Positions 11,656 through 58,595 of a stretch of DNA of 59,637 nucleotides are shown here, in pieces. Position numbers and translations under genes: made by a program. This DNA comes from a virus (Duplodnaviria; Caudoviricetes), in the IMG/VR virus record IMGVR_UViG_3300047562_002733, positions 1-59,637 of that record; one strand, written 5' to 3'. Under the pieces are notes generated by a model that did no database searches, was not told the origin of the DNA, and saw only the letters and a program-made list of their open reading frames with translations. Within the stretch, counting starts at the first letter, position 1, and each line of letters begins with the position of its first letter.

Positions 11656-11686
11656 CGGATCCCCCAAGGGGGTTGTTTTGTTTACA

Positions 11687-28170: not shown

Positions 28171-28716
28171 TCAGTGAGTGCCAGCAGGAGCATACTCCCA
28201 GCGCATGCCATTTTCTTTTTTCCAACACAGAGCAACCAGGGAGGCTTCGTAAGGGTTGGCGTAATAGCCAAGAAAATTGCTTGTCTTTTTGCCCTCTACC
28301 TTTTTGCCTACGTGCGAGATATAAGGACATCCGTTTTTATGGTTACTTTTGTCAATGCAAACATTTCGATAAGGTACAACACCCTTTACCGCAGAATTCA
28401 CTCGTTGTTCTCCACGAGTGGCCATCATCAAGTTTGCGCCATTATTGTTCGATTTATCTCGATCATAGTGGTCTATCTCAAGATCGACAGGATCGATACC
28501 CGTATACATCTTGTAGATGATCCGATGAGACTTATACAGAACTTTATTTAACCTAACTTCCCAGTAGCCAAAGACAGTTTTACGCCCTGCAGGACTACCT
28601 ATAATAGTATTTTTCGAGGATTTTCTCTTCCATCGGAGCCCATTAGGTATCAAAGGGTCTAAGTCAAAGTATTTATTAAGGATTTCCATTGAGGGAAGAG
28701 GTATGTGTGGCTTCAT
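28171..28716 (-). CDS. HNH homing endonuclease (HNH_3 type)
   Basis: GLRWK...AG...GYW...HRIIY...EIDHYDRDKSNN; AT-rich; sits after the MCP terminator. Confidence 0.85.
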   Translation of the reverse strand: MKPHIPLPSMEILNKYFDLDPLIPNGLRWKRKSSKNTIIGSPAGRKTVFGYWEVRLNKVLYKSHRIIYKMYTGIDPVDLEIDHYDRDKSNNNGANLMMATRGEQRVNSAVKGVVPYRNVCIDKSNHKNGCPYISHVGKKVEGKKTSNFLGYYANPYEASLVALCWKKENGMRWEYAPAGTH

Positions 28717-37522: not shown

Positions 37523-38269
37523 TTAGATTATCTGCCCCAATTGCATGGTGACGATATATTCTGTGGTTTTTACTCCGCTGATCACTTTTCTCTCGGCTGT
37601 CGCTATTGGCACGGAAATCGGATATAGATCCCCCGTGGTAGGCGTTGTTACGATTGTAGCTTCATACCATGCCCTGATATTGTTCCAACCAGCTTCCGTT
37701 GTCGCTCCTTCGATGTCTTTAATTTTGTAGACTACTTTGGGTCCTTCAATGTAATGAACTCCGCCCGCAGTCAGGTTGACACTGGGACCTTCCCCATAAG
37801 TATCGACTGGTTTTTTAAGCGTCAGGACGACGCCATTGATTGTAATCGTTCCAAAATCAGGCAGGTCTTCCTGCTCTGTTGCTAGCGCCTGTTCTCGCAG
37901 GAGTACCGCTAAGGCCTCGTTGGCATCAATGACTGATGCTGTTACGGCCAGCCAGTAACCATTTTGGTCAGCAACTGGTGGCTCATCAAACCAGCAGGCT
38001 ATATTACTCCAGGTCTGTCCTCCGGCTCCAGTGCCAGAAAACAAGACAGTTGTTCCGATGGATTCAGACGTGAGCGAATCTTCGTCGTTAATCCTAAGTG
38101 CTCGCCAGGCGTCGTACACGCTGACCAGGCTCAGCCATTCTGATGGTGTAACCAAGCCGGAAACCACCCATCGACGGGCAACCAGTCCAGCCCTTCCATT
38201 GGTCGCGTCATAAACCAAGGGCTGAGCGATTAACCTAGAGAAAGAAACACCGCCAATGGATATTGCCAT
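37523..38269 (-). CDS. Distal tail-like protein
   Basis: Directly follows the tape measure; call from position. Confidence 0.5.
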   Translation of the reverse strand: MAISIGGVSFSRLIAQPLVYDATNGRAGLVARRWVVSGLVTPSEWLSLVSVYDAWRALRINDEDSLTSESIGTTVLFSGTGAGGQTWSNIACWFDEPPVADQNGYWLAVTASVIDANEALAVLLREQALATEQEDLPDFGTITINGVVLTLKKPVDTYGEGPSVNLTAGGVHYIEGPKVVYKIKDIEGATTEAGWNNIRAWYEATIVTTPTTGDLYPISVPIATAERKVISGVKTTEYIVTMQLGQII

Positions 38270-41200: not shown

Positions 41201-43836
41201 GTCGCGGCCAGAGTAATTAATGTTCCAGTGACGGCGCCAATAGCGGTGCCTACCGGGCCAAAAACCGAACCAGCAAGAGCGCCAAAGCCAGCTCCTGCAA
41301 GCACCTTAGCAAAACGATCAAACGCGTTAGCAGCATTGTCGGCACCACCAGCAGCGGCATCAGAGCTAGGCGCCAGCGAATCCAGCAAGCTCTTGACGGC
41401 ATCAACCGACTCTTTTACGACCAGCGAGAACTCAAGCCACGCAAGTCCAAGTCCACTGATAGGCTGCTCCAGATCCTGGGTTTTGCCGGTGAGGTCCGTA
41501 ATTGCAGAATCAATTGCCTTCAGGCTTGTTTCAGACTCTCGATAAATGGTGTTTGACTTTTGAGCCGCATTGTTATATGCCTGTTGAAAAACAGCCAGGA
41601 CTCCAAGAGCAATACCGATCGGGCCTAATGCGGCCAAAAGTCCCCTGGCGCCAGCAGCGACACCATTGAACAGGCTGCCCAGGGGAGACAAGGCAGCCTT
41701 ACTGGCCTGTAGCCCACGGTTCAGTAACGAAGTCTTTGCCGACAGACTTTCCTTGCTAGCACCCAGGCCATCTGCTCCCTTCTTTGCTTCCTTACTGGAG
41801 GCAACAACATCAACCATCGCGGCCTTTAGTTCATTCAAGTTAGTCTTCAGGGCAATTGCTTGGGCTCCACCTTTGTCGAGTCCTGCGAGCTCTCTTCGCG
41901 TTGCGCCGATTGCGTTACGCAGTAGTGCCATCGATGTAGCGGGATCCTTTTTGGCTAATTCTCTGAGGCCAGCGAGTGTCTCTTTAGAGACGATCCTGGG
42001 GAAGCCGGCGATATTAGCAATACTCCTCAGCAGATTGCTAGATGCTATCTTTGCCGCCTCAGCAGACCTTACATACTTGGAAGTTCCGGACTGATAATCA
42101 TTGATAACTTTTGCTGCTTGCTGCACATTTTGCCCGAGGGCGCCGATGGCAGTGTTTGTTCCCTTTGCTGCATCTCCGACATTTTTCGTGGCGGCGGCGC
42201 CGGCCTTTGCGGCATCACTGAGGGTGCTAGTCCCCTCTCCCGCCGATTTCGCGGCACTAGCATATTGACCAATGCCAGAGGCGGCGCCACCAAGGGCTGA
42301 CTGAATGTCCGAGATATACTTAGTGACCGCGCCACCAAGGCCGCCAATCACTTTGACGCCAGACTGCAATGGCTTTAAGAATTTACCCAGAATCGCTAAA
42401 CCAACAGCCTCCAGAACTCCCGGAACCGAAGTCAGTTTTTCGATTAAAGGCGCAATCGCATTAATCAGCAAAACTACGGCCTCTACCAGGCTCAGGAACG
42501 CCTGTACTGCCCTGCCTCCGGCTGCACCGAAATTAGCAAGGATCTGGCCAATCGATTCAATATTGCTGACTTGACTCAGTCTTGAGAAAAAGTCAGTTAC
42601 AATTGCCTGTAATTTGATGAATACGTTAATAACTGGCTCAAACGCAGTTGCCAGATTTCTCAGGTTAAGCTCATTAAGGTTCCCAAATTGAGTTCTGACC
42701 TGATCAATCGTAACATTGCCTTCGGCCAGGCTGTTGGCTGCATCAATCGCAGAATCACCAAGCTTGCCGAACAGTAATGCGCTTTTACTTAGTTTTGGGA
42801 TATTTTCAAGCAGCACCTTACCTGTTATTCCCCCTGCTTTGACAAGTCGCTCAAGCTCCGCTACGCTGACGCCAATCGCATTAGCCAAATCGGATTTAAA
42901 GGCTGGATCCGCTTCAGATATCTGTTGGGTCAATTCTTCCGCCTGCAGCTTACCTTTTGCAAAGGCCTGAATGACGCCGTTTGTGACCCGCCGAGCTCGA
43001 TCACCGGAAATACCAAACGCAGCAAATCGACTCGAAAGTGCCTCCACAACGCTGGAAACGTCTTGGATACTCCCGCCAGTATTCAGGATAACAGGAGATA
43101 ACTGCTTGAAAGAATCCTGGACTGTATTGATATTTGTTCCAAGGCCCAGGGCGATTCGTTGAGACTCTTGCAGTGCTAAATTAGCGCCGGCACTACCCGT
43201 GCCAATAGCCTCAAATGCCAACCCAAAGGACTGTAGGTCTGCTGCACTTTTTATTACGGTATTGATTCCGCTAACAAACTGTCCGATTGCAATCGAGGCT
43301 GCCTGCAATCCCTGGGTGATACCTGCCAGTCCATCAAGGAAATCAACCAGACCCTGGGCTCTAAAGGATACCTTAACCTTGTCCCAGAAGCCCGAGGCGT
43401 TGGCTTCAGCTAGTTGGCGGCCTACTTCAGAGACCTTCCGGCTTGCAATCTCCCATTCTTTATTGATGACTCGGACGCTCGCCCCAGAGGCGACGACAAT
43501 CTCTCGATACTGAGCAATTGAGTCTCTAAGCTGCTTTTGTCTGTTGTATTGCTGCCTCAGGCTGGTCAGGCTACCGGCCTGGAGCTCCTCGGACTTCCTT
43601 TGTAGACTGATAATTTTATCAGCAGCCGTCAGCCTTTGTTTTTCAACAGCAACTAATTCTTTTACGCCCTTACTATTAACTCTGACTGAGACATCGATAA
43701 ACTTTTCTACGGTGCCACCAAGCAGTTTGTTAAGAGCTCTATCGGCACCTGCTACATCATTTAAGGCGTCTTGAAGAGCCTTGTTTACCTCGCTGGCATC
43801 AGCCTCAACTTTAAATCGAAGACTGTCAGCGGCCAC
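38269..43836 (-). CDS. Tail tape measure protein
   Basis: 1855 aa Ala-rich helical protein; QAFAKGKLQAEELTQQISE tape-measure motif; C-terminal GG...G..YQVNELGQEGF. Confidence 0.93.
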   Translation of the reverse strand: MAADSLRFKVEADASEVNKALQDALNDVAGADRALNKLLGGTVEKFIDVSVRVNSKGVKELVAVEKQRLTAADKIISLQRKSEELQAGSLTSLRQQYNRQKQLRDSIAQYREIVVASGASVRVINKEWEIASRKVSEVGRQLAEANASGFWDKVKVSFRAQGLVDFLDGLAGITQGLQAASIAIGQFVSGINTVIKSAADLQSFGLAFEAIGTGSAGANLALQESQRIALGLGTNINTVQDSFKQLSPVILNTGGSIQDVSSVVEALSSRFAAFGISGDRARRVTNGVIQAFAKGKLQAEELTQQISEADPAFKSDLANAIGVSVAELERLVKAGGITGKVLLENIPKLSKSALLFGKLGDSAIDAANSLAEGNVTIDQVRTQFGNLNELNLRNLATAFEPVINVFIKLQAIVTDFFSRLSQVSNIESIGQILANFGAAGGRAVQAFLSLVEAVVLLINAIAPLIEKLTSVPGVLEAVGLAILGKFLKPLQSGVKVIGGLGGAVTKYISDIQSALGGAASGIGQYASAAKSAGEGTSTLSDAAKAGAAATKNVGDAAKGTNTAIGALGQNVQQAAKVINDYQSGTSKYVRSAEAAKIASSNLLRSIANIAGFPRIVSKETLAGLRELAKKDPATSMALLRNAIGATRRELAGLDKGGAQAIALKTNLNELKAAMVDVVASSKEAKKGADGLGASKESLSAKTSLLNRGLQASKAALSPLGSLFNGVAAGARGLLAALGPIGIALGVLAVFQQAYNNAAQKSNTIYRESETSLKAIDSAITDLTGKTQDLEQPISGLGLAWLEFSLVVKESVDAVKSLLDSLAPSSDAAAGGADNAANAFDRFAKVLAGAGFGALAGSVFGPVGTAIGAVTGTLITLAATGDATEAQLKQLALEFKAVENASARETVAISRLSAALVTGANDAAKTKDEIAKLKKELEAKTNAGAPQEEINKLTEQILQKQNQLNASSAKLGASYGLISTQVAKTEAALTQLKAKQEEATIAAGKFPEGYANVRPELVQLFNLQKNLNANIGLQQTLQDRVREGLIDATDAQQRLVLAAQEEKTVREQIAAIQRELQGKGVDIQGAQQDPQLQAAIAAAAQYESQLQQLDEAVKQLEADLKAQKIAKDEAARATGLLTSEEKEYATTISSVSDEISRLKQLLEEELDPGLKPEKWREVNAEIAIAQVNLQRLKDSAEGLQALFTATTIRIGIDTGALADSVENAKRIVSSLETAEALINVRAPELPSVIANLVQARQNLDDINGYVATVTVKVIEQGLSTGALRETVGVLDQQLKALGAQSVSIPIDSPGIDEVLTKIEEVNQRKELGTLTNDQLEERSIQNQLKRLDIIENKQKNKIDNEIKGRKTADAAAERSAQAEIQQIQAASEARRAATQQQIQLIQQALQAARTASESRLRFLDQEAAKIDANNNRLQAGYAAQIRSLQGLTKAEKEQQAIKEKELKFQAAFGKTEEEKLDARAQLERLAREKAIASVQEKARKAAEQAAADREAIEQRRAAEQEAIRRDEEESARRIAAIEEEARAKEQADKLEIKKIEEGIRAQKAQTAELELEGAKKNLQFEAERQKLQERADELRLKRLEAEEEVIDYLLAKRKEAEEVGDLEKAAEINKEIAGISEGVANTAASFGEGTSEASDALSSVGAPAAEFVAGQLYNAAEAATQIGNKIRALDGLTVRINIAGIPGLWTGGPTEAGKVYQVNELGQEGFLSAGGTLRPINKPKNALWRAPSAGTVIPAHIMSALDAPKTGVKANIPGASVAAASGASSQMTKALQSSLSANIRSGRAINELASVQAQQALQIGKLSSAVNTLAAKDWNVHVKVRSNDNDFVLDALRHGL

Positions 43837-48388: not shown

Positions 48389-48876
48389 CTTTTTGTATAA
48401 TACTCCTATGATATGTTTCCGATCATTATTGCTGCCATGCAAAACCTGAGGTTGCTTAAGGATTCGTTGGTTCTTGCTTGTGTCATTAATGCCCAAGATC
48501 GATACGCCGCAATTCAGTTCTTTCGTTACTTAACCACACTCCAGGTGTCGTATGTGGGGGTGCCTAATTACCCGAAGGCGGTTGCTCTTAAGGCCGTTTC
48601 GTTTCTAAGGGACTCAACAGAAGGTCGGTTGTGGGTTCAGTCGATCTTCGATTCCTGAATTTTTGTAGGAAATTTTGAGGGGGTTGCTATAGCACTGGCA
48701 ATGCAGTTTCGGGGTGGGGGTACCTAGGCGATTCGCGCCAGGTTCCGACCTTGATTTGCTGTATTATTTTATACAATAAACAATACACATGGCACATGCG
48801 AACGGTCCCCAGGGCCAATTGATCGCAGGTTCCCTGCCGTGCTACACTAAACCAGAACCTTAAGAAGGCCAGACTC

Positions 48877-49194
48877 ATGCCCCTCCAGCTCCCCGTTAAC
48901 AGCACGCTGTCTCGACTGGCAGCCTTCCGCACTAGCACCCAGCGACGCATGATGCAGGCAGGCCTGCCCGCTCTGTTTGTAGCCACCGAGCTCCCCGACG
49001 TGGCACGTTGTATCGGGGCTGCCGAGTACACCCTTAAGTCGTCCTGGTGGGAGTGCCTTACCGATGATGTGGCACTCTGCATCAGGGCTGCCAGGTATGG
49101 GCACAAGCCGTCCTGGTGGGAGTGTCTTACCAGTGGTTCAACCAGTGCCCTACTCGCGGAAGCCGAGCACCGAGCCAAGGCTCTGTGGGACTAG
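48877..49194 (+). CDS. Cassette 1 hypothetical protein with internal 23-aa duplication
   Basis: Fills the space between repeats 1 and 2; TGCTACACT -10 upstream; SWWECLT twice. Confidence 0.65.
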   Translation: MPLQLPVNSTLSRLAAFRTSTQRRMMQAGLPALFVATELPDVARCIGAAEYTLKSSWWECLTDDVALCIRAARYGHKPSWWECLTSGSTSALLAEAEHRAKALWD

Positions 49195-49252
49195 ATCCCC
49201 TGATTGAACGGAACCTGCGAACGGTCCCCAGGGCCAATTGATCGCAGGTTCC

Positions 49253-49405
49253 TTAGCAGATCACCCAGGCCAGCAGCAGGATCGCGGCGATGGCCAGGGC
49301 GTTGCGTTGCCGGCGGAGTTCCTGCACCGACTCTTGCTGGTCGTCGATCAGGGCCAATGCCTCAGTGATGATCTCGGCCTTGCTGTTGCGCTCAGTGATG
49401 TTCAT
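49253..49405 (-). CDS. Cassette 2 small membrane-anchored protein
   Basis: MNITERNSKAEII...LAIAAILLLAWVIC; stop abuts repeat 2; minus-strand TGCTACACT at 49428-49436. Confidence 0.65.
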   Translation of the reverse strand: MNITERNSKAEIITEALALIDDQQESVQELRRQRNALAIAAILLLAWVIC

Positions 49406-49533
49406 GGGATGATCCCTCTCTTGTGGTAGTGTAGCACGAACGGATGGAACTTGCGAACGGTCCCTAGGGCCAATTGATCGCAAGTGCCTGGCTGACGTGT
49501 TACACTCATTCCGCAACCGACAGGATTCGATCC

Positions 49534-49707
49534 ATGCCTTATCAGTCCTCCCGTCCCTTCCACGTCCTGGCCGCCGTGATCGGCCTGGGATCCATTGGCC
49601 TGGCTCTGGCGATGGACTTCGGAGGGGTCCCCGCTGCTCGCTTGGCTGCTCGCTGTGATGCCATCAAGTGCGAGGTGGTGCGAGTCGCAAGCATACCCCT
49701 TCGCTGA
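49534..49707 (+). CDS. Cassette 3 small hydrophobic protein
   Basis: MPYQSSRPFHVLAAVIGLGSIGLALAM...; TGTTACACT upstream. Confidence 0.55.
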   Translation: MPYQSSRPFHVLAAVIGLGSIGLALAMDFGGVPAARLAARCDAIKCEVVRVASIPLR

Positions 49708-49779
49708 TTGGATGGAACTTGCGAACGGTCCCTAGGGCCAATTGATCGCAGGTTCCGCAGATCCGTTGCTGTCACTGCC

Positions 49780-49989
49780 ATGTTCCGCACCATCCTCGCC
49801 CTTCCACGCGCCGCCTGGGAGACGCCCCTGTTCTACGGCTACCTGCTGGCCAAGGGTTACAACCTGAGCCGTAGAGACGTGTTGCTCTCCCTGGCTAGGG
49901 TCCGCCCCTGGGAGAACACCGATAAGCGTGTGGCTCCCTGGCGTCTCGTTCGAGACGTTGCGGTCCTGGGGCCGATCGGTTACAATTAA
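49780..49989 (+). CDS. Cassette 4 hypothetical protein
   Basis: MFRTILALP...GPIGYN; stop 2 nt before repeat 5. Confidence 0.55.
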   Translation: MFRTILALPRAAWETPLFYGYLLAKGYNLSRRDVLLSLARVRPWENTDKRVAPWRLVRDVAVLGPIGYN

Positions 49990-50033
49990 GGGGAACCTGC
50001 GAACGGTACCTAGGGCCAATTGATCGCAAGTGC

Positions 50034-50303
50034 CTACTTCAGCGTGCGACGGCCACCTTCGCCGTTTCTGGCCCTGTTCTTGCTGCGGTTTTCCAAGACA
50101 AGGCGCCCATCCTTGGTGTGGCTCATGTCTCTGTTACCCATCCTGCCTTCAAGGCCCATTGCTCGCTTCTTGCGACGACGTTCATTATATCTCTCGCGTT
50201 CTCGATCTGTCTTGCGCCGGTCTGCTTCATATTGCTTTTTCTTTTCATACGCTTCCGGATTCTTCTTGTAGTAGTCCATCGTATTGCGCTTCTTCTGGGC
50301 CAT
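50034..50303 (-). CDS. Cassette 5 basic protein, paralog of 19439..19741
   Basis: NPEAYEKKK...DMSH...LENRSKNRARNG; stop overlaps the end of repeat 5. Confidence 0.7.
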   Translation of the reverse strand: MAQKKRNTMDYYKKNPEAYEKKKQYEADRRKTDRERERYNERRRKKRAMGLEGRMGNRDMSHTKDGRLVLENRSKNRARNGEGGRRTLK

Positions 50304-50412
50304 GAATCCAGTGCTGATTCTTTATTCTTCCGCAGCGTGATCGCGAGCGGTCCCCATGGCCATTGCTCACGATCTCGGCTCTGCCGCTGCCATCTCCCAC
50401 CGCGACTCCATT

Positions 50413-50607
50413 ATGGTCACCCTGGCATTCTTCGATCCCCGCTACTCGATCCCCTTAGCGCAGACTACCTACTGTGAACCTGAATGGCGTTACGCAGCAG
50501 CAGCAGCGCTCCGACGTGGCAGCGCCTACGAGGCCTGGCGCGATGGTAGACTGATCGCCAGGGGCGGTCCCCGCTCCATACTGCCGCCGTGCTATTATAA
50601 ATCGTGA
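50413..50607 (+). CDS. Cassette 6 hypothetical protein
   Basis: MVTLAFFDPRY...; TGA stop inside the arm of repeat 7. Confidence 0.55.
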   Translation: MVTLAFFDPRYSIPLAQTTYCEPEWRYAAAAALRRGSAYEAWRDGRLIARGGPRSILPPCYYKS

Positions 50608-50664
50608 TCGCGAGCGGTCCCCATGGCCATTGTTCACGATCAAACCACAACCGGAGCCATTCCA

Positions 50665-50973
50665 GTGATTCTGCACTTCGCTGCATCAAACGACACAGAC
50701 GGCAACCCTCGTCGGGTGTTTGTCTACGTGACAGAAGACGGTCAACCAATCGCTGCCTGGCCAGAAGGATACTCCGGCCATGATGCAGTTCCAGGCCCCC
50801 TGAGGGGGCTTGCGTGGCAGGCTATGCAGCGGTCGATCATGATCACCGTTGACGAATACCTGCAGGCCCTGGCGCTGCCGCGTCCGATGTACTACAATCC
50901 AGAGCACTTCCAATCGGCGGCCTGCCTGCAGCGCCACATTAAGATGGGAGTTGTGGCCCTGGCGCCCGCGTGA
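50665..50973 (+). CDS. Cassette 7 hypothetical protein
   Basis: GGAGCCATTCCA-GTG leader; NDTDGNPRRVFV...EGYSG; stop inside repeat 8. Confidence 0.65.
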   Translation: MILHFAASNDTDGNPRRVFVYVTEDGQPIAAWPEGYSGHDAVPGPLRGLAWQAMQRSIMITVDEYLQALALPRPMYYNPEHFQSAACLQRHIKMGVVALAPA

Positions 50974-51060
50974 TCGCGAGCGGTCCCTAGGGCCATTGTT
51001 CACGATCATGCTACACTGTTCTCCGGGGGCTGGGCCCCGTCCATTTCATAGGGTCATCCC

Positions 51061-51261
51061 ATGACAACCGCTCACCAGTTCGCTGCAGTAGGCTCCGAGA
51101 CTTGGCACCTGAACTGCGCCAAGGTCTGGCAGGAAAACATGGAGGTCTGGAGGGTTCTCCGGGACGCTCGGCAGTACCGCTCAGGCATGAACCTCTGCTA
51201 TGAAGCCTTCTCCGAGCATATTCACGCCGTCATGCGAGCCGACAGCCGGCCTGAGCTTTGA
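51061..51261 (+). CDS. Cassette 8 hypothetical protein
   Basis: TGCTACACT upstream; stop inside repeat 9. Confidence 0.6.
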   Translation: MTTAHQFAAVGSETWHLNCAKVWQENMEVWRVLRDARQYRSGMNLCYEAFSEHIHAVMRADSRPEL

Positions 51262-51324
51262 TCGTGAGCGGTCCCTGGGGCCATTGTTCACGATCAATCC
51301 ATCGTCATCATCGGAGCCAATCCA

Positions 51325-51645
51325 ATGGAGAGCACCATCCAAGAACTGGCCTATCAGGCTGCCCCGTTTCAGATCGCCGACCCTGAGGCTTGGCTGTGGG
51401 TTGATGGCAACTGTATCTGGCTGATGTTCCAGACTGACTGGCGTTCGCTGTGGAACCAGATCAAGTGCAGTAGTGGAGTGCTGGATTGTCTTGATGTGGC
51501 GGCCGGCCAAGACCCTGACGAGGGCATCAACTGGAAGGACTCCTCAGTGTTCACTGAGTGGCTCAGACTGCCCGAGGAGCTCGAAAAGGACATCAAGGCT
51601 GGCGGCCACTACATGTGGCGCTACCTGCTACACTGCAGCGTATGA
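51325..51645 (+). CDS. Cassette 9 acidic, Trp-rich hypothetical protein
   Basis: GGAGCCAATCCA-ATG leader; stop inside repeat 10. Confidence 0.65.
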   Translation: MESTIQELAYQAAPFQIADPEAWLWVDGNCIWLMFQTDWRSLWNQIKCSSGVLDCLDVAAGQDPDEGINWKDSSVFTEWLRLPEELEKDIKAGGHYMWRYLLHCSV

Positions 51646-51704
51646 TCGTGAGCGGTCCCTGGGGCCATTGTTCACGATCAAACCATCCCACTGGAGCCAA
51701 TCCA

Positions 51705-51935
51705 ATGCAAGTCACCGCCAAGTCCCGCAAGGATGACATCTGGGCCGCCTATGAAGCCCGCCTGCAGCAGCCGACCACCTGGGGCGATGTCTGGGGGCTG
51801 GCCGTCAGCACCGCCCGCACCATCGCCAAAGAAGTGCCCTTGGCCATGCGCGACGCTTACAACGCTGGAAGTGCAGTCAGGAACTGGGTTCTCAGCGTGG
51901 TTGACGAGCTCAACCGCCCGCTGCTAAAATCCTGA
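51705..51935 (+). CDS. Cassette 10 hypothetical protein
   Basis: GGAGCCAATCCA-ATG leader; MQVTAKSRKDDIW...; stop inside repeat 11. Confidence 0.65.
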   Translation: MQVTAKSRKDDIWAAYEARLQQPTTWGDVWGLAVSTARTIAKEVPLAMRDAYNAGSAVRNWVLSVVDELNRPLLKS

Positions 51936-51967
51936 TCGTGAGCGGTCCCAGGGGCCATTGTTCACGG

Positions 51968-52201
51968 TCACGCCGCGTTGATCGCCGCCTGGAGCTCCTC
52001 CAGGGCATTCAGAAGCTCTTGCGCCTGCTCGTGCATACCCTCCAGCCACCATGGGTCCGGGCTCCAGGCAGGGCGGTCTGTGCCGTTCTTCCAGGCGAGG
52101 TTAGAAGCGATCATCACCTCCAGGGTAGCGGAAGCCAGAGCGTCCTCTGCGGCGTCCCGCTGCTGCAGGCATTCAACCAAAAACTCTTTAGTGGCAGACA
52201 T
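51968..52201 (-). CDS. Cassette 11 hypothetical protein (inverted)
   Basis: GGAGTAAATCC-ATG leader on the minus strand; stop in the right arm (ggTCAcg) of repeat 11. Confidence 0.65.
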   Translation of the reverse strand: MSATKEFLVECLQQRDAAEDALASATLEVMIASNLAWKNGTDRPAWSPDPWWLEGMHEQAQELLNALEELQAAINAA

Positions 52202-52312
52202 GGATTTACTCCTTTGGTCTGAACTGACTGTAGGACTGGAAGCCCCCAGGCCGCCCGATCGTAGCACAACGGATGATCGTGAGCGGTCCTAGGGGCCATT
52301 GTTCACGATCGC

Positions 52313-52341
52313 TTGACAGGCACGACCGCAGCCAGTACCAT
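52313..52341 (+). promoter_or_regulatory. Sigma70-type promoter
   Basis: TTGACA-17 nt-TACCAT directly after repeat 12. Confidence 0.7.
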
Positions 52342-52362
52342 TCGCTTAGTGGAGGCATTCCA

Positions 52363-52587
52363 ATGATCACCGACCACGGCACTCAGCAGGTTGCACAGTG
52401 GAGACTCGACGAACTCCATAGTCTCAAAGAAAAGCTCCGCAACGCGCTGGCCGATGCCCTTGAACTTGAGCGCACCGCCGACCCAGGAGTCCGATACGCA
52501 ATGATCGCCGGTCGCCTGACGGCTGCCGTTGACAATGCCCGGATTACCCTTGACTGCTATCTGCCGGATGATCGTGAGCGGTCCTAG
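52363..52587 (+). CDS. Cassette 12 hypothetical protein
   Basis: GGAGG RBS; reads into repeat 13 and stops in its core. Confidence 0.6.
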   Translation: MITDHGTQQVAQWRLDELHSLKEKLRNALADALELERTADPGVRYAMIAGRLTAAVDNARITLDCYLPDDRERS

Positions 52588-52632
52588 TGGCCAATTGTTC
52601 ACGATCAAACCACACCCCATCGGAGCCAATCC

Positions 52633-52986
52633 ATGTCCGTCTATCTCAACACCTATGAAGTCTGGCAGGTCTACGGCGGCCCGGAAGAGGGTGGCTGGTG
52701 GTTTGAAGCCGGCACGCCAATGCAGTCGATCCTGGTGAGCCACGACGACCTGGAAGATTGGCTGGAAAACACTCCGGAGGAAGAGCAGGCGGCAATGCGC
52801 GAGCATGCCACACTGGGTTACACTCAGGGCAAAGCCCCAACCCCCAAAAAGACCGGCTATGGCGGTTACACGTTTGCCCCAGGGAGCGATGAGCCCCTCA
52901 CTTACCAGCAGGACAACGACTATCGGTCCTGGTTTGAGGACTCCTACGCTGAGCCCTTCCCTGTGGAGCGTCCATGCTATTGTTGA
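52633..52986 (+). CDS. Cassette 13 hypothetical protein (YGGPEEGGWW motif)
   Basis: GGAGCCAATCC-ATG leader; YGGPEEGGWWF...FP.ERP.Y. Confidence 0.7.
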   Translation: MSVYLNTYEVWQVYGGPEEGGWWFEAGTPMQSILVSHDDLEDWLENTPEEEQAAMREHATLGYTQGKAPTPKKTGYGGYTFAPGSDEPLTYQQDNDYRSWFEDSYAEPFPVERPCYC

Positions 52987-53066
52987 CGCGTGAGCGTGAG
53001 CGGTCCTAGAGGCCATTGTTCACGATCTCGGCTCTGCCCCCTGTCGAATCCCGCCCTGCTAGTGCT

Positions 53067-53243
53067 ATGACCATCACCGTCTACTACGTTCCCTCCACTA
53101 GTGCTACCGGCGTCACCGTGAAGGTCGATCCCTCACTGCCCGAGGAGGAGGCCCGCACCCTGGCTATCCGTAGAGTCCGCAACCGACTGAAGGGTCAGCA
53201 GCGTGCTCGATTCCACGCTCTTGCCACCTACGTGCATCCCTGA
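53067..53243 (+). CDS. Cassette 14 hypothetical protein
   Basis: MTITVYYVP...; fills the inter-repeat space. Confidence 0.55.
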   Translation: MTITVYYVPSTSATGVTVKVDPSLPEEEARTLAIRRVRNRLKGQQRARFHALATYVHP

Positions 53244-53323
53244 TAGCATGATGATCGTGAGCGGTCCTGGAGGCCAGTTGTTCACGATCTCGCGCTAGCA
53301 TCCACATCATTGCCGATCCGACC

Positions 53324-53617
53324 ATGCTGCAGTTCGACCGCTACTACGGGCTTTATGCTCAGGTTCCTTTTTCTTGGGTCCCGTGGTTCCTGAACAACAC
53401 CGCCAAGACTGGGCTGTATGGCTGGCTTAGATTGGGCAGCTACTGCCTGTGCTTGAACATGGGATTGGAGCCTGACGAGAGAAGATTGGCCAGCTTTGGC
53501 CTGTTGATGCTGACGCGGCCAGAGACGCAAGAAGAACAGCAGGACAGAGAAGAAGCGGAAGCCGAAGAGGCTTTCATGGAGCGAGAGCTCAACCGCTACA
53601 CTGAATGGTATTATTAA
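53324..53617 (+). CDS. Cassette 15 hypothetical protein
   Basis: 97 aa; fills the inter-repeat space. Confidence 0.6.
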   Translation: MLQFDRYYGLYAQVPFSWVPWFLNNTAKTGLYGWLRLGSYCLCLNMGLEPDERRLASFGLLMLTRPETQEEQQDREEAEAEEAFMERELNRYTEWYY

Positions 53618-53659
53618 CTTTCGTGAGCGTGAGCGGTCCTGCGGGCCAATTGTTCACGG

Positions 53660-53845
53660 TCACGAAACTTCACATTGCATCCAGGCATCCTCCAGATCCA
53701 TGACCCCGCAAAGCACGTCCTGTAGCGGGCCGCTCATGAGCTCATCAAAGGTTTCGTCGTCGATGGTTTTGCGGGCTTCTTCCATGTGCTTGTGCAGTGC
53801 TTCGCAGAACTCATGGAGGTTGGCGATCTTGTCAAAGGCGGTCAT
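53660..53845 (-). CDS. Cassette 16 acidic hypothetical protein (inverted)
   Basis: Minus-strand TAGAAT and GGAGCCATTCCA-ATG leader; stop in the right arm of repeat 16. Confidence 0.65.
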   Translation of the reverse strand: MTAFDKIANLHEFCEALHKHMEEARKTIDDETFDELMSGPLQDVLCGVMDLEDAWMQCEVS

Positions 53846-54036
53846 TGGAATGGCTCCGTTGATGGTTTGATTCTACACCGTGAGCGTGAGCGGCCCTGCG
53901 GGCCATTTGCTCACGATCTCGCGCTCGTCGCGCCGCCCAACCCTGCCCCGTTACACTTCGTTACAGTAAACTTTTACAACAGGCCCTGCTTTGAGGCCGG
54001 CGGGTGGTATGATTGTATCGCCAACAGGAGGCATCC

Positions 54037-55830
54037 ATGCACTTCACTCTTCCCGAAAACCTGAAGTCTCAGATTCTTGCCTATGATCCGGCGATGAAGG
54101 CGCTGGCAGCAGCTCAAGTTAGCCAAGCAAAAAAAGAAGGCAAACCCAATAAGTTTAAAAGGTTTGGGGTGCCCGACAATCTTTTTCCTGCCTTTATTGC
54201 TACGCCGGAAGAACAAAAGGCTACCGCTGTTGCTATTAACAACTGCCAGGAATCGAACGGCTGGTCAAAGGTTCATCCCGAGAAAAAGGCGATCCTGGCT
54301 TACTACAACAACGTTTGGACGGCAGTGTGGGAAGATGACGAACACGGCATCGGCGTTACCTATTTGTCAAAAGGAACTGGCGGCAAGTTCGTTAATGACA
54401 TTCTTCGGCAATACTTTTCCAATGACGACAGCATATGGCAAGTTACCACCGAGCATGAAGTTACCTATAGCAGCAACCCAAGAATGAAATGGAACAAGGC
54501 TTGCTGCACGCTAACCAAAGAGCAACGCATTGAAGCCGCTTTGGGTGACAGCTATCGTAACATGTCCTATGCTTACCGGCACGAATGTAAGACTCATCTG
54601 CCCTCAGTGCAATCACTGCTTAGTGTCAATACCCACAGGATCTATCGCCAGAGAATGACCGCCAATGGTGCCAGCAGAGCTTCAGGAATCAATTTCAGTG
54701 GTAAAGGACGCATAAATGGTCTTGGCCTTGGTGGCAACAAGCTCCTTGAGGTTGCGCCTTTTTCTGTATTGATGTTCCTGGCAAACAGCGTCAATACCGA
54801 GTGCTACTACCCCCTCCATAGCATGGAGCCAATTGCCGCCACCCTTCAGAAGGGCTGCGAGGGTGGTTTCTATAAAGGGCGGCTAACGCTTAAAGGCTTC
54901 AATTGGTTCTGTTCTTCGATAGTTCCAGAGTTTTCAAAGTATGAAGACGTAACATACACTGATCGTATCATCAAAAAGACTGACACACCTACTATCAGGC
55001 GATACCAGCAGGAAGCGGTTGATCAAATTAACGCTTGTTTGTTCGACTCCAACAATGAGGTTCTTGCTGAGCCGATCCAAAGGGCCGTTAGCACGGGCGT
55101 TTACATTCTGATGATCGCCCAATTCTTCGATACTTTCTATCCTAACGCTTCAGTCGATCATATTCACCAAGTCGCTGGCAGGGTCATCAATAACAAAAAA
55201 CGAAAGTTTATCATGCGCGATGTTCACGCCATTAACAAGAACGTCTTTCCTGAGGCAATGAATTGGCTGACTAGCAATGCGCCAATACAAACAGTGCTAG
55301 GAATGCTGATTCCCGAAGAGTACAATGGAGAATCGATTAACATAAACATTGACTCTATCCGCATCATTGAGCGACTGCTAAACACTGAAGAATACCAAGA
55401 AGAACTGAAGCCCCCCAGGCGTTGGCGTGATCTTCATGACTACGTTATGTCGAAAGAGTGGAAGATCAAAACGCCAAATGAATTGCTGCCACAGGACCTG
55501 TTTCCTGAACCAGTAAAAGATGGACAGTGGACATTCTTTCAACCTCGCGATGTTCACCAACTAGCGGACTGGGGCCGCGCTGTTCGCAACTGCGTCGGAG
55601 GCACGCACTACGCCCAAGGCATCAAAAAGAAAAACCACTTTATCGTGCTAGCAATGGTGAACAGGGTGCCTATGGTTACTATTCAGTTGTCAGTTCAGAA
55701 TGGCGTGATGAATGTCGATCAAATCTCAAAGGTATCCAACGAGCTCCTTAACCCTGTTGAGAGGCTGTCTTATCAATCAGCCTTCAGCAATGCCCTGAAG
55801 ATACGCGAGAATCAACTAAAAGCAGCATAG
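54037..55830 (+). CDS. Cassette 17 PcfJ-like domain protein
   Basis: C-terminal LHDYV...QPRDVHQLADWGRAVRNCVGG..Y...TIQL; GGAGG RBS; TGGTATGAT -10. Confidence 0.7.
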   Translation: MHFTLPENLKSQILAYDPAMKALAAAQVSQAKKEGKPNKFKRFGVPDNLFPAFIATPEEQKATAVAINNCQESNGWSKVHPEKKAILAYYNNVWTAVWEDDEHGIGVTYLSKGTGGKFVNDILRQYFSNDDSIWQVTTEHEVTYSSNPRMKWNKACCTLTKEQRIEAALGDSYRNMSYAYRHECKTHLPSVQSLLSVNTHRIYRQRMTANGASRASGINFSGKGRINGLGLGGNKLLEVAPFSVLMFLANSVNTECYYPLHSMEPIAATLQKGCEGGFYKGRLTLKGFNWFCSSIVPEFSKYEDVTYTDRIIKKTDTPTIRRYQQEAVDQINACLFDSNNEVLAEPIQRAVSTGVYILMIAQFFDTFYPNASVDHIHQVAGRVINNKKRKFIMRDVHAINKNVFPEAMNWLTSNAPIQTVLGMLIPEEYNGESININIDSIRIIERLLNTEEYQEELKPPRRWRDLHDYVMSKEWKIKTPNELLPQDLFPEPVKDGQWTFFQPRDVHQLADWGRAVRNCVGGTHYAQGIKKKNHFIVLAMVNRVPMVTIQLSVQNGVMNVDQISKVSNELLNPVERLSYQSAFSNALKIRENQLKAA

Positions 55831-55835
55831 CCAAC

Positions 55836-55862
55836 CGGGGGCAATCGCCCCCCTTTTTTTTA
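55836..55862 (+). terminator. Rho-independent terminator
   Basis: GGGGGC-AATC-GCCCCC followed by a T-tract. Confidence 0.85.
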
Positions 55863-55973
55863 TAGAAACAGATGGTGAGCGTGAACAACAGCAGCGCGAC
55901 CGTTGTTCACGATCTCGCTCCGCGCCCGCAAACGGCCCCTGCCCGCTATACTATCTTCAGTGTATTCAAGTCA

Positions 55974-56240
55974 ATGCCTAATCTTCAACAGCGTGTAATG
56001 GGACCAATCAACGAAGCAGAGGCTCTTGATATCGTTGAGTTTATGGGCAAGAACATCAGTAAAAACGCTCTTATCATCAGGCAATCGCTGCCGGAGTGGA
56101 CGCAACATAATTGCCATCTAATGGCGCGAGCCTTGAAGAAGCATCGTTACTACAGCCATAATAACATATATGGAAGCACTATTCGCTCTCTCGCTAACAC
56201 AATTGCTATTGCAGAGCATCGCCTAGCAAGTCGATCTTGA
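55974..56240 (+). CDS. Cassette 18 hypothetical protein
   Basis: TATACT upstream; stop inside repeat 19. Confidence 0.55.
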   Translation: MPNLQQRVMGPINEAEALDIVEFMGKNISKNALIIRQSLPEWTQHNCHLMARALKKHRYYSHNNIYGSTIRSLANTIAIAEHRLASRS

Positions 56241-56381
56241 TCGTGAACAACAAAAGGCAGGTTGTTCACGGTCACGCGACGCGGCGATCCTACCACTCCC
56301 GGCCCTCTTTTGTTGCAATACTTAATATTTGCGAGGTGTGGGTGGCCTGCTATACTGCGAGGGCACCAGAGGGCTTGACCC

Positions 56382-56987
56382 ATGCAAATCACTCACGGCA
56401 GCATCTTGGCCATCTTTTTTATGGCCAGCGAAGCAGAAAAAGAGGAAGGAAGGGATTGGTATCCCCGTGCCAATCGCATCTCAATCAGCATCGCTAACAG
56501 CTACGTTCTGCCGCATCTTTCCCATACCGCTGCAGGCGTGCTGGCAGCCCTTAGCCCTAACAATAAGTGGGACAGAAACGTCCGTGATGCTGAAGCCTTG
56601 ATTAAGGCTTTTTATGCTGGCGCTGATCCTGACACCATTAAAGTTTCAACCTTCGGGAAGAACAAAAAGAAGGCGGTTCAAATACTGAAAGGCGATCACC
56701 CGCTTAATGTGCTTGGCGGGCTTAAGGTTCGCGCCTTTTATCGGTGCATTATTGGTGCCGACGCCGTTTGTATTGACGGCCATGCCTACAGCATTTGGAC
56801 CGGCCAGCGTGTCCCTACCACCAAAACGCCTAGTATCAGCGAAAAATTGTACAACAAAATCGCTGGAGACTACCGCCTAGCAGCAACGCAAATTAGCGAG
56901 ATTACCGGCGAGCAATACACTGCCGCCGAGGTTCAGGCGATCACCTGGGTTGTTTGGCGTAACATGCACGCAAAGGTGGCAGGCTGA
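56382..56987 (+). CDS. Conserved phage protein, possible HhH DNA-glycosylase-like fold
   Basis: G.DWY, GVLAALSPNNKWDRN, GLKVRAFY, VCIDGHA, QAITWVVWR; TGCTATACT upstream. Confidence 0.55.
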   Translation: MQITHGSILAIFFMASEAEKEEGRDWYPRANRISISIANSYVLPHLSHTAAGVLAALSPNNKWDRNVRDAEALIKAFYAGADPDTIKVSTFGKNKKKAVQILKGDHPLNVLGGLKVRAFYRCIIGADAVCIDGHAYSIWTGQRVPTTKTPSISEKLYNKIAGDYRLAATQISEITGEQYTAAEVQAITWVVWRNMHAKVAG

Positions 56988-57289
56988 TGTGGTGGGCGTA
57001 TGATCCTGAAGGCGAACTAAAGGCACTGCCCCCTGGTCCGCTATTGCTGCCAGCATTGATGATAAGCGCGGTTGCGTTTATCTTTTCATCTGTATTTACA
57101 GATGAGCAATCGCTGGAATCTTTTGCTGCTGTTGCTACTTCACCTAGGTACAAAAGGGATCTTGATAGATACCTAGCTTTGGCCAGTAAATCTGCAGATG
57201 CAGAACAGACCTTGAGTGATTCTGAGTTCTACGAACTAAGAGCACTTACCGAACGGGTTTACAACGACAAAAACCGCTTCATCCCCTAG
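56987..57289 (+). CDS. Hypothetical membrane protein
   Basis: Coupled ORF with one TM segment. Confidence 0.55.
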   Translation: MWWAYDPEGELKALPPGPLLLPALMISAVAFIFSSVFTDEQSLESFAAVATSPRYKRDLDRYLALASKSADAEQTLSDSEFYELRALTERVYNDKNRFIP

Positions 57290-57355
57290 ACAGGCGGGCG
57301 CCCATCGGCTACACTCAGATCACCGGGGCACACCCCGACCCACAGGAGCAAATCC

Positions 57356-57721
57356 ATGTTTGAGAATCACAAGGCTTACAAGGCTGACACCGGCATCGGC
57401 AAGCGGCTCGCCCGTGTGCAAGAACTGATGACCACCATCGAAACCCTGGAGCGGGAGCTTGACGAGCAAAAGGCCTATTTGCTCGGCCATGCTATCCGTA
57501 GCGAACTGCATTCTATGCAGTTTGAGCATATGAAGGCAACAGTTTGCGAGACAACCCGCTGGATTTACAGCGATTCTGTCAAGCAATCAGAGAAGCGCCT
57601 AAAGGCAAAGAAGGCCCGCGAGCAGGAAGATGGCACTGCAATCGGCACAAAGAGTCAACATATTCGCGTAACCTTCAGCGCAAAGGGCATCCTGGCCGAA
57701 CAAGCAAAAGCGGAGGCGTGA
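57356..57721 (+). CDS. Hypothetical coiled-coil protein
   Basis: GGAGCAAATCC-ATG leader; W.YSD.VK..E. Confidence 0.65.
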   Translation: MFENHKAYKADTGIGKRLARVQELMTTIETLERELDEQKAYLLGHAIRSELHSMQFEHMKATVCETTRWIYSDSVKQSEKRLKAKKAREQEDGTAIGTKSQHIRVTFSAKGILAEQAKAEA

Positions 57722-57873
57722 TGACATTCTCTGTCTTCAAATTAGACGAAGAGGGCTATGAGTTGACCCTCGCGAGCAGGCTGCAAACGCAAGAACAGGC
57801 CGAAATTATGGTAGACGACCTGTCAGAGAAGTGGCCTCACGCCTATATCGACTACAAGGAAGACAACCGGTAG
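57721..57873 (+). CDS. Small acidic hypothetical protein
   Basis: MTFSVFKLDEEGYELTL...KWPHAYIDY; TGATG-coupled. Confidence 0.6.
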   Translation: MTFSVFKLDEEGYELTLASRLQTQEQAEIMVDDLSEKWPHAYIDYKEDNR

Positions 57874-57879
57874 CAAATT

Positions 57880-57902
57880 GGGGCCATTCAGGCCCCTTTT
57901 TT
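57880..57902 (+). terminator. Rho-independent terminator
   Basis: GGGGCC-ATTCA-GGCCCC followed by a T-tract. Confidence 0.8.
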
Positions 57903-58595
57903 ATGCTTACATCGAAAAAAATCGTGACCGTGAGCAGGGCGGAGCCGCTGTTCACGATCGCGCCCACGCCGGGGCACCCGATCCGGGTTCGCGATCACGG
58001 GGGAGCGGGGGAAACGGGGTATATAATAGTATTCCGAAAGCGGCTTAGGGATACGAGGTTAGGAGGTTGTGAGTATTTTTGCTTAAGATAATCGTGAGTT
58101 ATAAGTTTCGAGCCAACAGAGGAGGGGAGAAATTTGTGCGGCAGTGTGTTATAAGCCTGGCGGCGCCATTTCCGGTCCGCGATATACGTTATATATAGGT
58201 ACTTTAGTCGAAGGCTGCCAGGACGAACACTTATACCTTATCGCCTAGTCGGTCCGCGATCTGGCATGACGTGTGTATATAGACTGCCATGTCAGATCGA
58301 CGACGGGCTTCAGTAAGCTACCCCTAGCCCGAGAATGCTATACCTTATATATAGGTACAAAAAACCGCCGACAGGGCAATGATGACCTTCGGCGGCATCT
58401 TCTGCCCCTAGAATGGGCTGATGGCTAAGAAGTATGCCGCCAGGATAGACCCCATTAACAGGAAGCAGATAGCCGGCCAGGGGTCGTAGGGGTCGTATAT
58501 TTCTATCGTAATGTTAAGAATTGCTAACAAAACAAGGGCTGAAGTTAGTGCGCTTACGAAATTCATCTTTTTTGGTATACTTTTTTTAGATGCAC

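Follow-up and report, generated by a model that had tools for sequence, protein, structure and literature searches.

What are the hairpin repeats that punctuate one end of an uncultured cyanophage genome, and do they serve to move the small genes that lie between them? The DNA analysed here (the window) is the entire IMG/VR virus record IMGVR_UViG_3300047562_002733, a linear sequence of 59,637 nucleotides (nt) estimated to be 85% complete. It comes from an uncultured siphovirus related to Synechococcus phage S-CBS2 (an S-CBS2-like cyanosiphovirus), and its large terminase has 58% identity to those of Synechococcus siphophage S-CBS2 and the S-CRES phages. Minus-strand structural genes extend to position 48496; an array of 20 hairpins begins in the divergent gap beyond them and proceeds rightwards. 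In our best reading, this array is a hyperplastic early-gene region of ORFans in which a conserved stem-loop marks off every small gene as a module. The exchange and permutation of these gene cassettes at the repeats is real and well supported. As to how it comes about, we favour, with moderate confidence, regulatory stem-loop modules that also supply the recombination machinery of the phage with portable stretches of homology; the array would then be the cyanosiphovirus equivalent of the PeSL (promoter-early stem-loop) cassettes of T4-like phages.

The 20 repeats are 36-43 nt long, are all oriented on the plus strand, lie within 9.2 kb and occur nowhere else in the 59,637 bases. They form three families, each contiguous along the array: five copies of family A (48791-50034), 12 of family B (50339-53921) and three of family C (55874-57962). 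The arms of family A are 13 nt long and all alike in kind, those of family B are of the type TGATCGTGAGC / GTTCACGATCA, and both families have the common core GGTCC-N3-4-GGCC with (A)ATT after it; in family C the arms are B-type but longer, and the loop is free. A covariance model (model R1), built on 56 repeat copies including the 20 of the window, matched all 20 on the plus strand at E <= 2e-7, and its other matches in the window were only weak reverse-strand shadows of the same 20 sites. Pattern scans of the window located the core GGTCCNNNNGGCC 15 times, always on the plus strand, and the right-arm word GTTCACGRTC 14 times (13 plus, one minus), with every occurrence inside the array. The core-plus-bulge pattern gave 15 matches against 3.3 +/- 1.7 expected, a number reached by none of 100 shuffles. 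The original prediction, made from the letters of the window, had claimed 20 repeats at these positions with a shared orientation of their asymmetric cores and had noticed none in the other ~49 kb, and the model and the pattern scans confirm both points.

Folded in silico as RNA, the repeat forms an outer stem, an inner stem of 4-5 bp, a loop of 3-4 nt and a bulge of 3-4 nt on the 3' side, which bears out the inner stem and one-sided bulge that had been proposed. Ten such folds have energies of -20 to -28 kcal/mol, with z scores of -2.8 to -5.8 on the plus strand, and were matched by 0 to 3 of 200 shuffles. The plus-strand RNA is the more stable in 30 of 38 segments (mean 3.2 kcal/mol), and for four repeats folded on both strands the plus strand is better by 3-11 kcal/mol. 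Pairs 14-34 and 15-33, which extend the outer stem, are G.U, A-U or G-C in 56 and 54 of the 56 copies, respectively (G.U in 52 and 47, A-U in four and three, G-C in none and four, with two unpaired), and most of them would be A.C on the other strand. A G.T wobble at position 2 was also considered as proof of plus-strand folding; it fails in two related loci, L245 and L268, and pairs 14-34 and 15-33 were used instead. The same predicted features, the one-sided bulge and the plus-strand preference, may also bear on a fold of single-stranded DNA with extrahelical bases. Between the window and its relatives L231 or G001 the hairpin stems are identical and only loop bases differ, in neighbourhoods whose coding DNA differs by 10-30%; the hairpin is under strong selection.

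Of the 19 intervals between hairpins, 16 hold one small open reading frame (ORF), one holds a gene for a 597-amino-acid (aa) PcfJ-like protein, one an 88-aa gene, and the last a block of four genes, exactly as the original prediction had it (one ORF in 18 of 19 intervals, four genes in the last). We number the single genes c1 to c18 from left to right. Four of them (c2, c5, c11 and c16) lie on the minus strand, and the hairpins that flank them keep the plus orientation. The cassette ORFs are real genes, because their differences from homologues in the related contigs L220 and L231 concentrate at third codon positions: at first, second and third positions, respectively, we counted 3, 2 and 30 differences for c9, 6, 7 and 31 for c12, 7, 12 and 49 for c13, and 6, 4 and 17 for c10. 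A PHROG search gave no match for 14 of the 16 small cassette proteins, and a Pfam search gave none above the cut-off for the ten proteins tested. The cassette proteins are real ORFans.

Evidence of exchange comes from relatives. The structural genes of G001 (42 kb) are collinear with those of the window (68-77% nucleotide identity), and its eight B repeats and one C repeat are nearly letter-for-letter like those of the window; between these repeats, window counterparts exist only for the c10 family (39% aa identity) and the PcfJ-like gene (36%). A scan of metagenomes returned 30 stretches, of which 27 were single chance matches in GC-rich DNA and three, L220, L231 and L239 from the same metagenome, were real. 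These three contigs are 74-90% identical to individual window cassettes, and L239 is 70% identical in the PcfJ region. L220 has the order c12, c13, a new cassette, c16, c15 and then the region upstream of the PcfJ gene, and L231 has c7, c14, c9, c8 and c10; the last junction of L220 is independently overlapped by L239. All eight long BLAST segments of L220 and L231 against the window start and stop within 8 nt of a repeat edge. Since the contigs are 10-26% different from the window, they represent other strains and not misassemblies. The original prediction had named the same genes in the same order, or breakpoints outside the repeats, as evidence against itself; the opposite was found, namely, genes that differ and are reordered, with homology breaking at hairpin edges.

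Eighty related loci were gathered through an alignment of the major tail-type protein (A1), and among the loci related by tail protein a pattern search recognized variant-hairpin arrays in L245, L268, L290, L312 and L315. The covariance model, used out of sample, recognized arrays in L250, L251, L262, L265 and L276, and weakly in L323. As a result of the covariance-model search that had been proposed with the original prediction, the hairpin is known from at least ten related virus contigs, from different samples, and all matches in relatives lie on the strand opposite the tail gene, as in the window; no match was found among 80 unrelated phage loci (1.0 Mb). Order maps drawn from shared protein families differ across the nine arrays and array fragments compared, in seven of which the most widespread family, that of c10 (F1), is present. 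Family orders are reversed for F3/F1, F14/F1, F6/F12 and F6/F11: F3-F1 in L245 stands against F1-F3 in L268 and L290, F1-F14 in L245 against F14-F1 in L312, and F6 before F12 in the window against F12 before F6 in L245. The reversed gene c2 of the window resembles the N-terminus of the c10 family (48% over 31 aa, a short match), which is on the plus strand in L290, and to judge from these sequences one cassette family seems to occur in both orientations between co-oriented hairpins.

The repeats themselves are uniform within a genome and different between genomes, and homologous cassettes carry the local repeat type; thus the repeats do not travel with their cassettes. Within the window, repeat variants are shared in neighbour blocks (R6-R8; R9-R13 and R15; R14, R16 and R17, the hairpins being numbered R1 to R20 from the left). 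Homology often continues past the hairpin through a leader to the ATG (leader families D1 and D2), and in several cassettes this shared leader of 25-35 nt is all that separates hairpin and start codon. Such neighbour-block variants, genome-specific repeats and leader homology are, in our reading, marks of repeated homologous exchange and gene conversion.

The S-CBS2 genome has no hairpin match by the model and no comparable array, and no relatives came to light when the gene left of the array was used as a query. No match was obtained by megablast of the array against 50,697 phage records or with the family A pattern in IMG/VR, and an Rfam search returned three matches at E 0.2-0.7, far below gathering scores and none on any repeat. 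The pattern first used for collection was too loose and gave at least 119 single chance matches. A scan of 185,579 species genomes gave one chance match only, which indicates that the hairpin is not a host repeat. A literature search, which did not cover the original 2012 S-CBS2 genome paper, found no account of these repeats in S-CBS2-like phages.

Stop codons of genes on both strands abut or overlap the hairpin arms: the first three bases of the left arm are often a TGA stop, two of the four reversed genes have the mirror TCA at the end of the right arm, and a loop TAG is used once as a stop. Across all arrays, 18 of 68 repeats have an extended -10 box (TGnTAnnnT) on the plus strand at a distance of 1-20 nt before the inner left arm, as against about 1.8 expected, an enrichment of roughly ten times chance, and at the mirror position on the minus strand it was found at only one of the 68. 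Messages from these promoters would start at the foot of the hairpin. Other repeats have good promoters 8-93 nt downstream, such as TTGACA-17-TACCAT after R12, and so the promoter is not a fixed part of the repeat; a promoter scan found 12 promoter-like sites against 7.0 +/- 2.5 in shuffles. A promoter inside the repeat, whether as a fixed -35/-10 pair or for phage sigma factors, was rejected, the box spacing ranging from 14 to 18 nt with no consistent -10. A hairpin promoter of the N4 type is no more than an idea. A role as a restriction-site decoy was also rejected, because elsewhere the genome does not avoid GATC, GGCC or GGWCC.

A T tail is missing from all the repeats, none of which scores as a terminator. 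Among 19 terminator-like sites on both strands, only two are canonical intrinsic terminators on the plus strand, each with a stem of six G-C pairs followed by a T run (55837-55852 and 57880-57896), and each stands just before a C repeat; the same holds for G001. Because ordinary terminators are used where they are needed, the hairpin repeat is something else, and the sequence argues against a classical terminator.

The window encodes a full recombination set, all on the minus strand: a Sak-type single-strand annealing protein (12623-13279; Pfam SSAP_Sak 6.1e-06; phrog_659), a PD-(D/E)XK exonuclease of the DUF3799 type (8854-9756), a RusA-type Holliday junction resolvase (9776-10192) and SSB (11299-11895). 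The original prediction had noted no tyrosine, serine or HUH recombinase, and indeed PF00589, PF00239 and PF01797 (tyrosine, serine and Y1) have no match in the window or in any of the five array-bearing records searched, which are 85, 59, 17, 32 and 21% complete; PF00589 controls matched in 14 of 14 genomes. The readable, informative chimeric repeats (two in L220 and one joint in run X11) all cross at the boundary of left arm and core. This boundary is also the longest identical tract, so that the crossover position does not separate a homologous from a site-specific model. The X11 joint, a single weak observation in one contig of depth 6, goes back 261 (53255>52995) and connects the end of c14 with the hairpin that precedes this gene; its shorter side has 69 nt, 13 nt are shared, and either a c14 circle or a tandem duplication would fit. 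Further Logan joints at repeats (48833>49201, 49485>49708, 49488>49998, 51015>51933 and 51687>51260), which have 26-39 nt on one side and may reflect mapping ambiguity, are not counted as evidence, and coverage by runs X9 and X11, the latter an RNA library in short contigs that do not resolve transcript ends, is patchy and uninformative on habitat or expression.

How, then, might the hairpins work? The stem-loop would act as punctuation, a boundary element on the plus-strand transcript: it probably blocks 3' exonucleases on the upstream message and caps the 5' end of the downstream one, insulating neighbouring units. At the same time, each hairpin, often with its leader, would offer 36-70 nt of near-identical, co-oriented sequence as homology for Sak, the exonuclease, RusA and SSB. 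Crossovers between hairpins, in the same genome or between co-infecting relatives, could delete, duplicate, replace or move cassettes and leave the genes unbroken. Direct-repeat crossovers would yield circles, probably small, and re-entry of such circles at any other hairpin is our proposed explanation of the permutations. The right arm of one hairpin and the next left arm make up inverted repeats of 10-13 nt, which could flip a cassette with the cores untouched, and such flipping would explain the reversed genes between co-oriented hairpins. To judge from Red-type systems, 36-70 nt of identity should suffice given Sak, exonuclease, SSB and RusA, in agreement with the argument made in the PeSL study (PMC2839356). 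Besides the role in RNA, we infer that the exchange is homologous and not site-specific, that circles are its intermediates, and that the cassettes are expressed early or for host takeover.

Several observations weigh against this combination of RNA boundary element and homology tract. At two positions the stem frequently lacks a pair (columns 6-42 in 22 copies of 56, columns 12-36 in 20), and the five compensatory pairs all come from the single split between families A and B. Position 2 in L268 is A.C on the plus strand, and not all wobbles, therefore, favour that strand. A symmetric protein site on duplex DNA fits the pairing counts equally well. The plus orientation of the hairpins beside the four minus-strand genes is not predicted by a purely per-gene RNA role. 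No A/B hybrid repeat was seen in spite of the common core, and the left arm/core crossovers could reflect a preferred site. Most joints in Logan contigs have only 26-39 nt on one side and perhaps stem from mapping ambiguity in repeats. Finally, since all five array-bearing records are incomplete, a recombinase may lie in DNA outside them.

The first three of these points, namely the frequent unpaired positions, the single-split compensation and the A.C pair of L268, leave some probability, which we judge low, to the hairpins being duplex-DNA operators. A regulator of phage or host origin would bind the nested palindrome, made of GTGAnC hexamers in inverted pairs, beside each early promoter and switch the whole array on or off, and shuffling would be a by-product of the repeated sites. 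Promoter boxes are found next to the sites, to their left or right and pointing either way; the n position of each hexamer is free to vary and does so independently in the left and the right arm; a change of arm family affects both sides at once; and the genome-specific variants are what co-evolution of site and protein would give. Such a regulator would nevertheless have to tolerate arm-to-arm spacings that differ by 5 bp within family C and by 1-2 bp within family B, an insert of 3-4 nt on one side only, and distances to the nearest -10 box from 1 to ~90 nt; it would not account for loop bases that vary while the inner stem is kept, or for the systematically better fold of the plus strand. 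No regulator was identified in the window, where the only helix-turn-helix match is weak and lies in a 335-aa ORF beside the gene for the DnaB-like helicase. The c10 family, considered as a trans-acting factor, gave no Pfam match above the cut-off and a poor Atlas model. In a specific form of the RNA reading, cleavage of the hairpins by RNase III (or RNase E), as in phage T7, would divide long early transcripts into stable single-gene messages. It is suggested by hairpins that stand between co-directional genes, 25-35 nt before many start codons and with a shared leader, by a compatible shape in which a 3'-side bulge divides two stems, and by the missing T tail. Nevertheless, the whole helix comes to no more than 16-18 bp, the many cassettes with promoters of their own need no processing to be separated, no Rfam family matches, and it is the sequence and not shape alone that is conserved across phages, which is beyond what RNase III is known to require; we think this explanation quite improbable.

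An integron-like site-specific system would fold the plus strand as single-stranded DNA, mark the reactive strand by the bulge, and excise and reinsert cassettes at a fixed point near the left arm/core boundary by means of an unidentified recombinase. It is suggested by an imperfect palindrome with a one-sided bulge of 3-4 nt and a variable loop, G.T positions that favour one strand, copies that are co-oriented in every array and opposite to the tail gene strand, cassettes permuted between relatives, and readable chimeric repeats that cross at that very boundary. However, the recombinase families PF00589, PF00239 and PF01797 are unmatched in five of five (incomplete) records, and the arms do not fit RYYYAAC/GTTRRRY, in agreement with the lack of attC boxes claimed in the original prediction. 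The repeats are uniform within and different between genomes and are not carried with cassettes, neighbouring repeats are alike with homology reaching into the leaders, many cassettes have their own promoters, and four of the 19 intervals contain reversed genes. An integron-like system of this kind is, in our estimation, distinctly improbable. A dedicated exchange site in the wider sense, with a folded plus strand, a polarity given by the one-sided bulge, and cutting or pairing by a phage protein where left arm and core meet, is hardly less doubtful; the protein in question might be RusA or Sak acting on an extruded structure, or else a recombinase that escaped recognition and is encoded in the missing 15% of the genome. 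If such a mechanism were true, cassettes would exit as circles and re-enter at any hairpin, an integron-like gene capture native to lytic cyanophages. As for chance or an assembly artefact, contigs often end in arrays, where assemblers struggle; this explanation is refuted by 20 copies at E <= 2e-7 with none elsewhere in the window, by the same element in at least ten other records from different samples, and by rearranged contigs which, at 10-26% difference from the window, are other strains. Thus, of the possibly undescribed cassette system advanced in the original prediction, the shuffling of cassettes stands, with content and order that differ among relatives, whereas its undescribed, integron-like character is not supported, in view of the PeSL precedent, the lack of a matching recombinase in five incomplete records and the uniform repeats.

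The array can now be followed from left to right, with all hairpins, and all genes not called reversed, on the plus strand. R1 (48791-48833), with a degenerate left arm, is matched by the covariance model at E 3.4e-12. A variant in run X11 has at 48797, instead of this arm, an ordinary one of family A together with the upstream flank usual there, and the X11 strain probably has at least one further cassette left of c1. The ORFan c1 (105 aa; 48877-49194) contains an internal tandem duplication of 69 nt (23 codons, 77% identity) at 48997-49131. R2 (49210-49252), whose RNA fold is -26.3 kcal/mol on the plus and -23.1 on the minus strand, is followed by the reversed c2 (50 aa; 49253-49405), and R3 (49446-49488), with extended -10 boxes on both strands directed away from the repeat, by c3 (57 aa; 49534-49707). 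R4 (49714-49756), c4 (69 aa; 49780-49989), R5 (49992-50034) and the reversed c5 (89 aa; 50034-50303; phrog_6437, function unknown) complete the family A part. In place of these family A cassettes, the DNA of G001 from the conserved left-flank gene to the first B repeat contains two additional genes and ~0.8 kb of AT-rich sequence (L209 13900-14760), and a short degenerate hairpin lies near L209:15986-16022.

Family B begins with R6 (50339-50374) and c6 (64 aa; 50413-50607), whose start codon was assigned by judgement. R7 (50606-50641) has an extended -10 box 11 nt upstream of the inner arm and precedes c7 (102 aa; 50665-50973), which has a GTG start after GGAG; R8 (50972-51007), with such a box 8 nt downstream, precedes c8 (66 aa; 51061-51261), whose L231 homologue is placed after c9. 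R9 (51260-51295; fold -23.4 on the plus against -17.3 on the minus strand) is followed by c9 (106 aa; 51325-51645), which also has an L231 homologue, R10 (51644-51679; box 13 nt upstream) by c10 (76 aa; 51705-51935; family F1), R11 (51934-51969; box 7 nt upstream) by the reversed c11 (77 aa; 51968-52201), and R12 (52275-52310), after which the TTGACA-17-TACCAT promoter lies, by c12 (74 aa; 52363-52587). The loop TAG of R13 (52570-52606) is the stop codon of c12; beyond it lies c13 (117 aa; 52633-52986), with homologues in L220 and L268. R14 (52989-53030) has a doubled left hexamer and a box 6 nt upstream and leads to c14 (58 aa; 53067-53243), which stands after c7 in L231. R15 (53253-53289; box 7 nt upstream) leads to c15 (97 aa; 53324-53617), and R16 (53622-53664; box 8 nt upstream; fold -27.9 on the plus against -17.2 on the minus strand) to the reversed c16 (61 aa; 53660-53845), the order of c15 and c16 being swapped in L220. 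The last B copy, R17 (53879-53921), precedes c17 (597 aa; 54037-55830), which is PcfJ-like at its C-terminus.

Of the family C copies, R18 (55874-55917) and R20 (57923-57962) each stand directly after a canonical terminator. R18 precedes c18 (88 aa; 55974-56240), whose L245 homologue precedes the c15 homologue, and R19 (56236-56276) precedes the four-gene block (56382-57873), consisting of a DUF7178 gene (56382-56987) and genes at 56987-57289, 57356-57721 and 57721-57873. For the DUF7178 protein (Pfam 1.6e-48), IMG/VR contigs yielded 114 relatives, which are 39-46% identical to it; DUF7178 is a widespread phage gene of unknown function. The unrelated phages L142, L170 and L194, which bear DUF7178, have their own repeated promoter/leader or palindromic word before several small genes, and the covariance model has no match in these three; repeated regulatory modules seem to be common in early regions. 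The non-coding stretch after R20 (57960-58500) contains a near-consensus -10 box near 58020 and two copies, at 58183 and 58339, of a 20-nt AT-rich palindromic word, and may be a regulatory or origin-like region. A variant in run X3 lacks 77 nt of this stretch, bounded by direct repeats of 11 nt (58172>58250; shorter side 197 nt).

Elsewhere, the window encodes, for replication and nucleotide metabolism, a DnaG-type primase, a DnaB-like helicase, the small subunit of ribonucleotide reductase and ThyX, and further a small and a large terminase, an endolysin-like protein, tail proteins, two sigma factors and an HNH endonuclease. The two phage sigma factors (3981-4622 and 11687-12502, both minus) match phrog_36098 at 8e-68 and Pfam Sigma70 regions 2 and 4, and the S-CBS2 annotation likewise has two. 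The HNH endonuclease gene (HNH_3, 4.9e-11; 28171-28716, minus) lies within the structural gene block, and an ORF of 1855 aa (38269-43836, minus) where a tape measure gene would stand is about twice the length of the S-CBS2 tape measure.

Among known systems, integron attC arrays share with the present array co-oriented imperfect palindromes that bound small genes, and variable cassettes; their fold prefers one strand and has unpaired bases on one side, as is predicted in silico for the hairpins here. The attC boxes are R'' RYYYAAC and R' GTTRRRY; the arms here read G-Y-G-A-R-C and G-N-T-C-R-C, and only the AAC...GTT of family C overlaps those boxes. Unlike attC arrays, the present one has no R''/R' boxes, no IntI match and no evident attI or Pc, its sites are not carried with the cassettes, cassettes have their own promoters and some genes are reversed. 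REP/BIME elements with RAYT differ as well, since PF01797 was found in none of the five records and no dispersed host copies exist among the 185,579 genomes beyond the one chance match. The early RNase III sites of T7 are loosely conserved in sequence and belong to a fixed gene order with one promoter cluster. Like the present hairpins, they have internal loops, stand between successive early genes of a lytic phage and lack a T tail; here, in contrast, the sequence is conserved, promoters are many and the genes shuffle. Stern and Gruissem reportedly found in 1987 that inverted repeats in the 3' untranslated regions of plastid mRNA are 3' processing and stability signals and not terminators. 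These too are stem-loops without T tails just after stops, in the cyanobacterial lineage, but, unlike the array hairpins, they form no repeated family and have no link to gene shuffling. In cluster A mycobacteriophages, which are temperate, the immunity repressor binds stoperators, asymmetric duplex sites of 13 bp; they resemble the hairpins as dozens of copies of one short site, placed in short intergenic gaps in a single orientation relative to transcription, whereas the element here is a palindrome of 36-43 nt, and neither repressor nor integrase is seen in the window.

The linkers of Botstein and Campbell and the morons of Hendrix, as treated in the PeSL paper, likewise have flanking conserved sequence that targets module exchange to harmless sites, and small genes that are self-expressed (PMC2839356); here, the linker is one defined hairpin family repeated 20 times. 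The closest precedent is the PeSL itself, described by Arbiol et al. in 2010 and Comeau et al. in 2014. The PeSL of T4-like phages consists of a stop codon, a stem-loop with G-T pairs, a sigma70 promoter at variable offset, a Shine-Dalgarno sequence and a start; PeSLs are dense among ORFans, indels between relatives break at the motifs, and no integrase is involved (PMC2839356). Indels and mini-circles formed by homologous recombination were shown there, as was terminator activity (PMC2839356), and the authors proposed homologous recombination by the phage machinery and likened the system to integrons (PMC2839356; PMC4122927). They report no evidence of such plasticity outside T4-like phages (PMC2839356). 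The array resembles the PeSL system in its layout of stop, stem-loop and, at a variable offset, predicted promoter within a dense ORFan region, its breakpoints at the motifs and the absence of a match to an integrase family. As demonstrated features, terminator activity and mini-circles belong to PeSLs.

From PeSLs the array differs in a number of respects. The virus is a siphovirus of a cyanobacterial host and not a T4-like myovirus; what is conserved is the hairpin and not the promoter; at 36-43 nt this hairpin is the longer of the two, an inner stem and a bulge on one side are part of it, and there are three families of it; every copy points the same way, even beside reversed genes; there is no T tail, and canonical terminators are separate; and cassette order is permuted and not only altered by indels. 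Natural relatives show replacement, permutation and probably inversion of single genes, which makes the array a natural experiment on the entry and movement of ORFans in phage genomes. The covariance model is a searchable marker for fast-evolving early, host-takeover or anti-defence genes in abundant aquatic phages, and the array is a ready-made landing pad for cyanophage engineering. Thus, the logic of the PeSL recurs in an unrelated virus family on cyanobacteria, and in a cleaner form, with one hairpin family at every module boundary.

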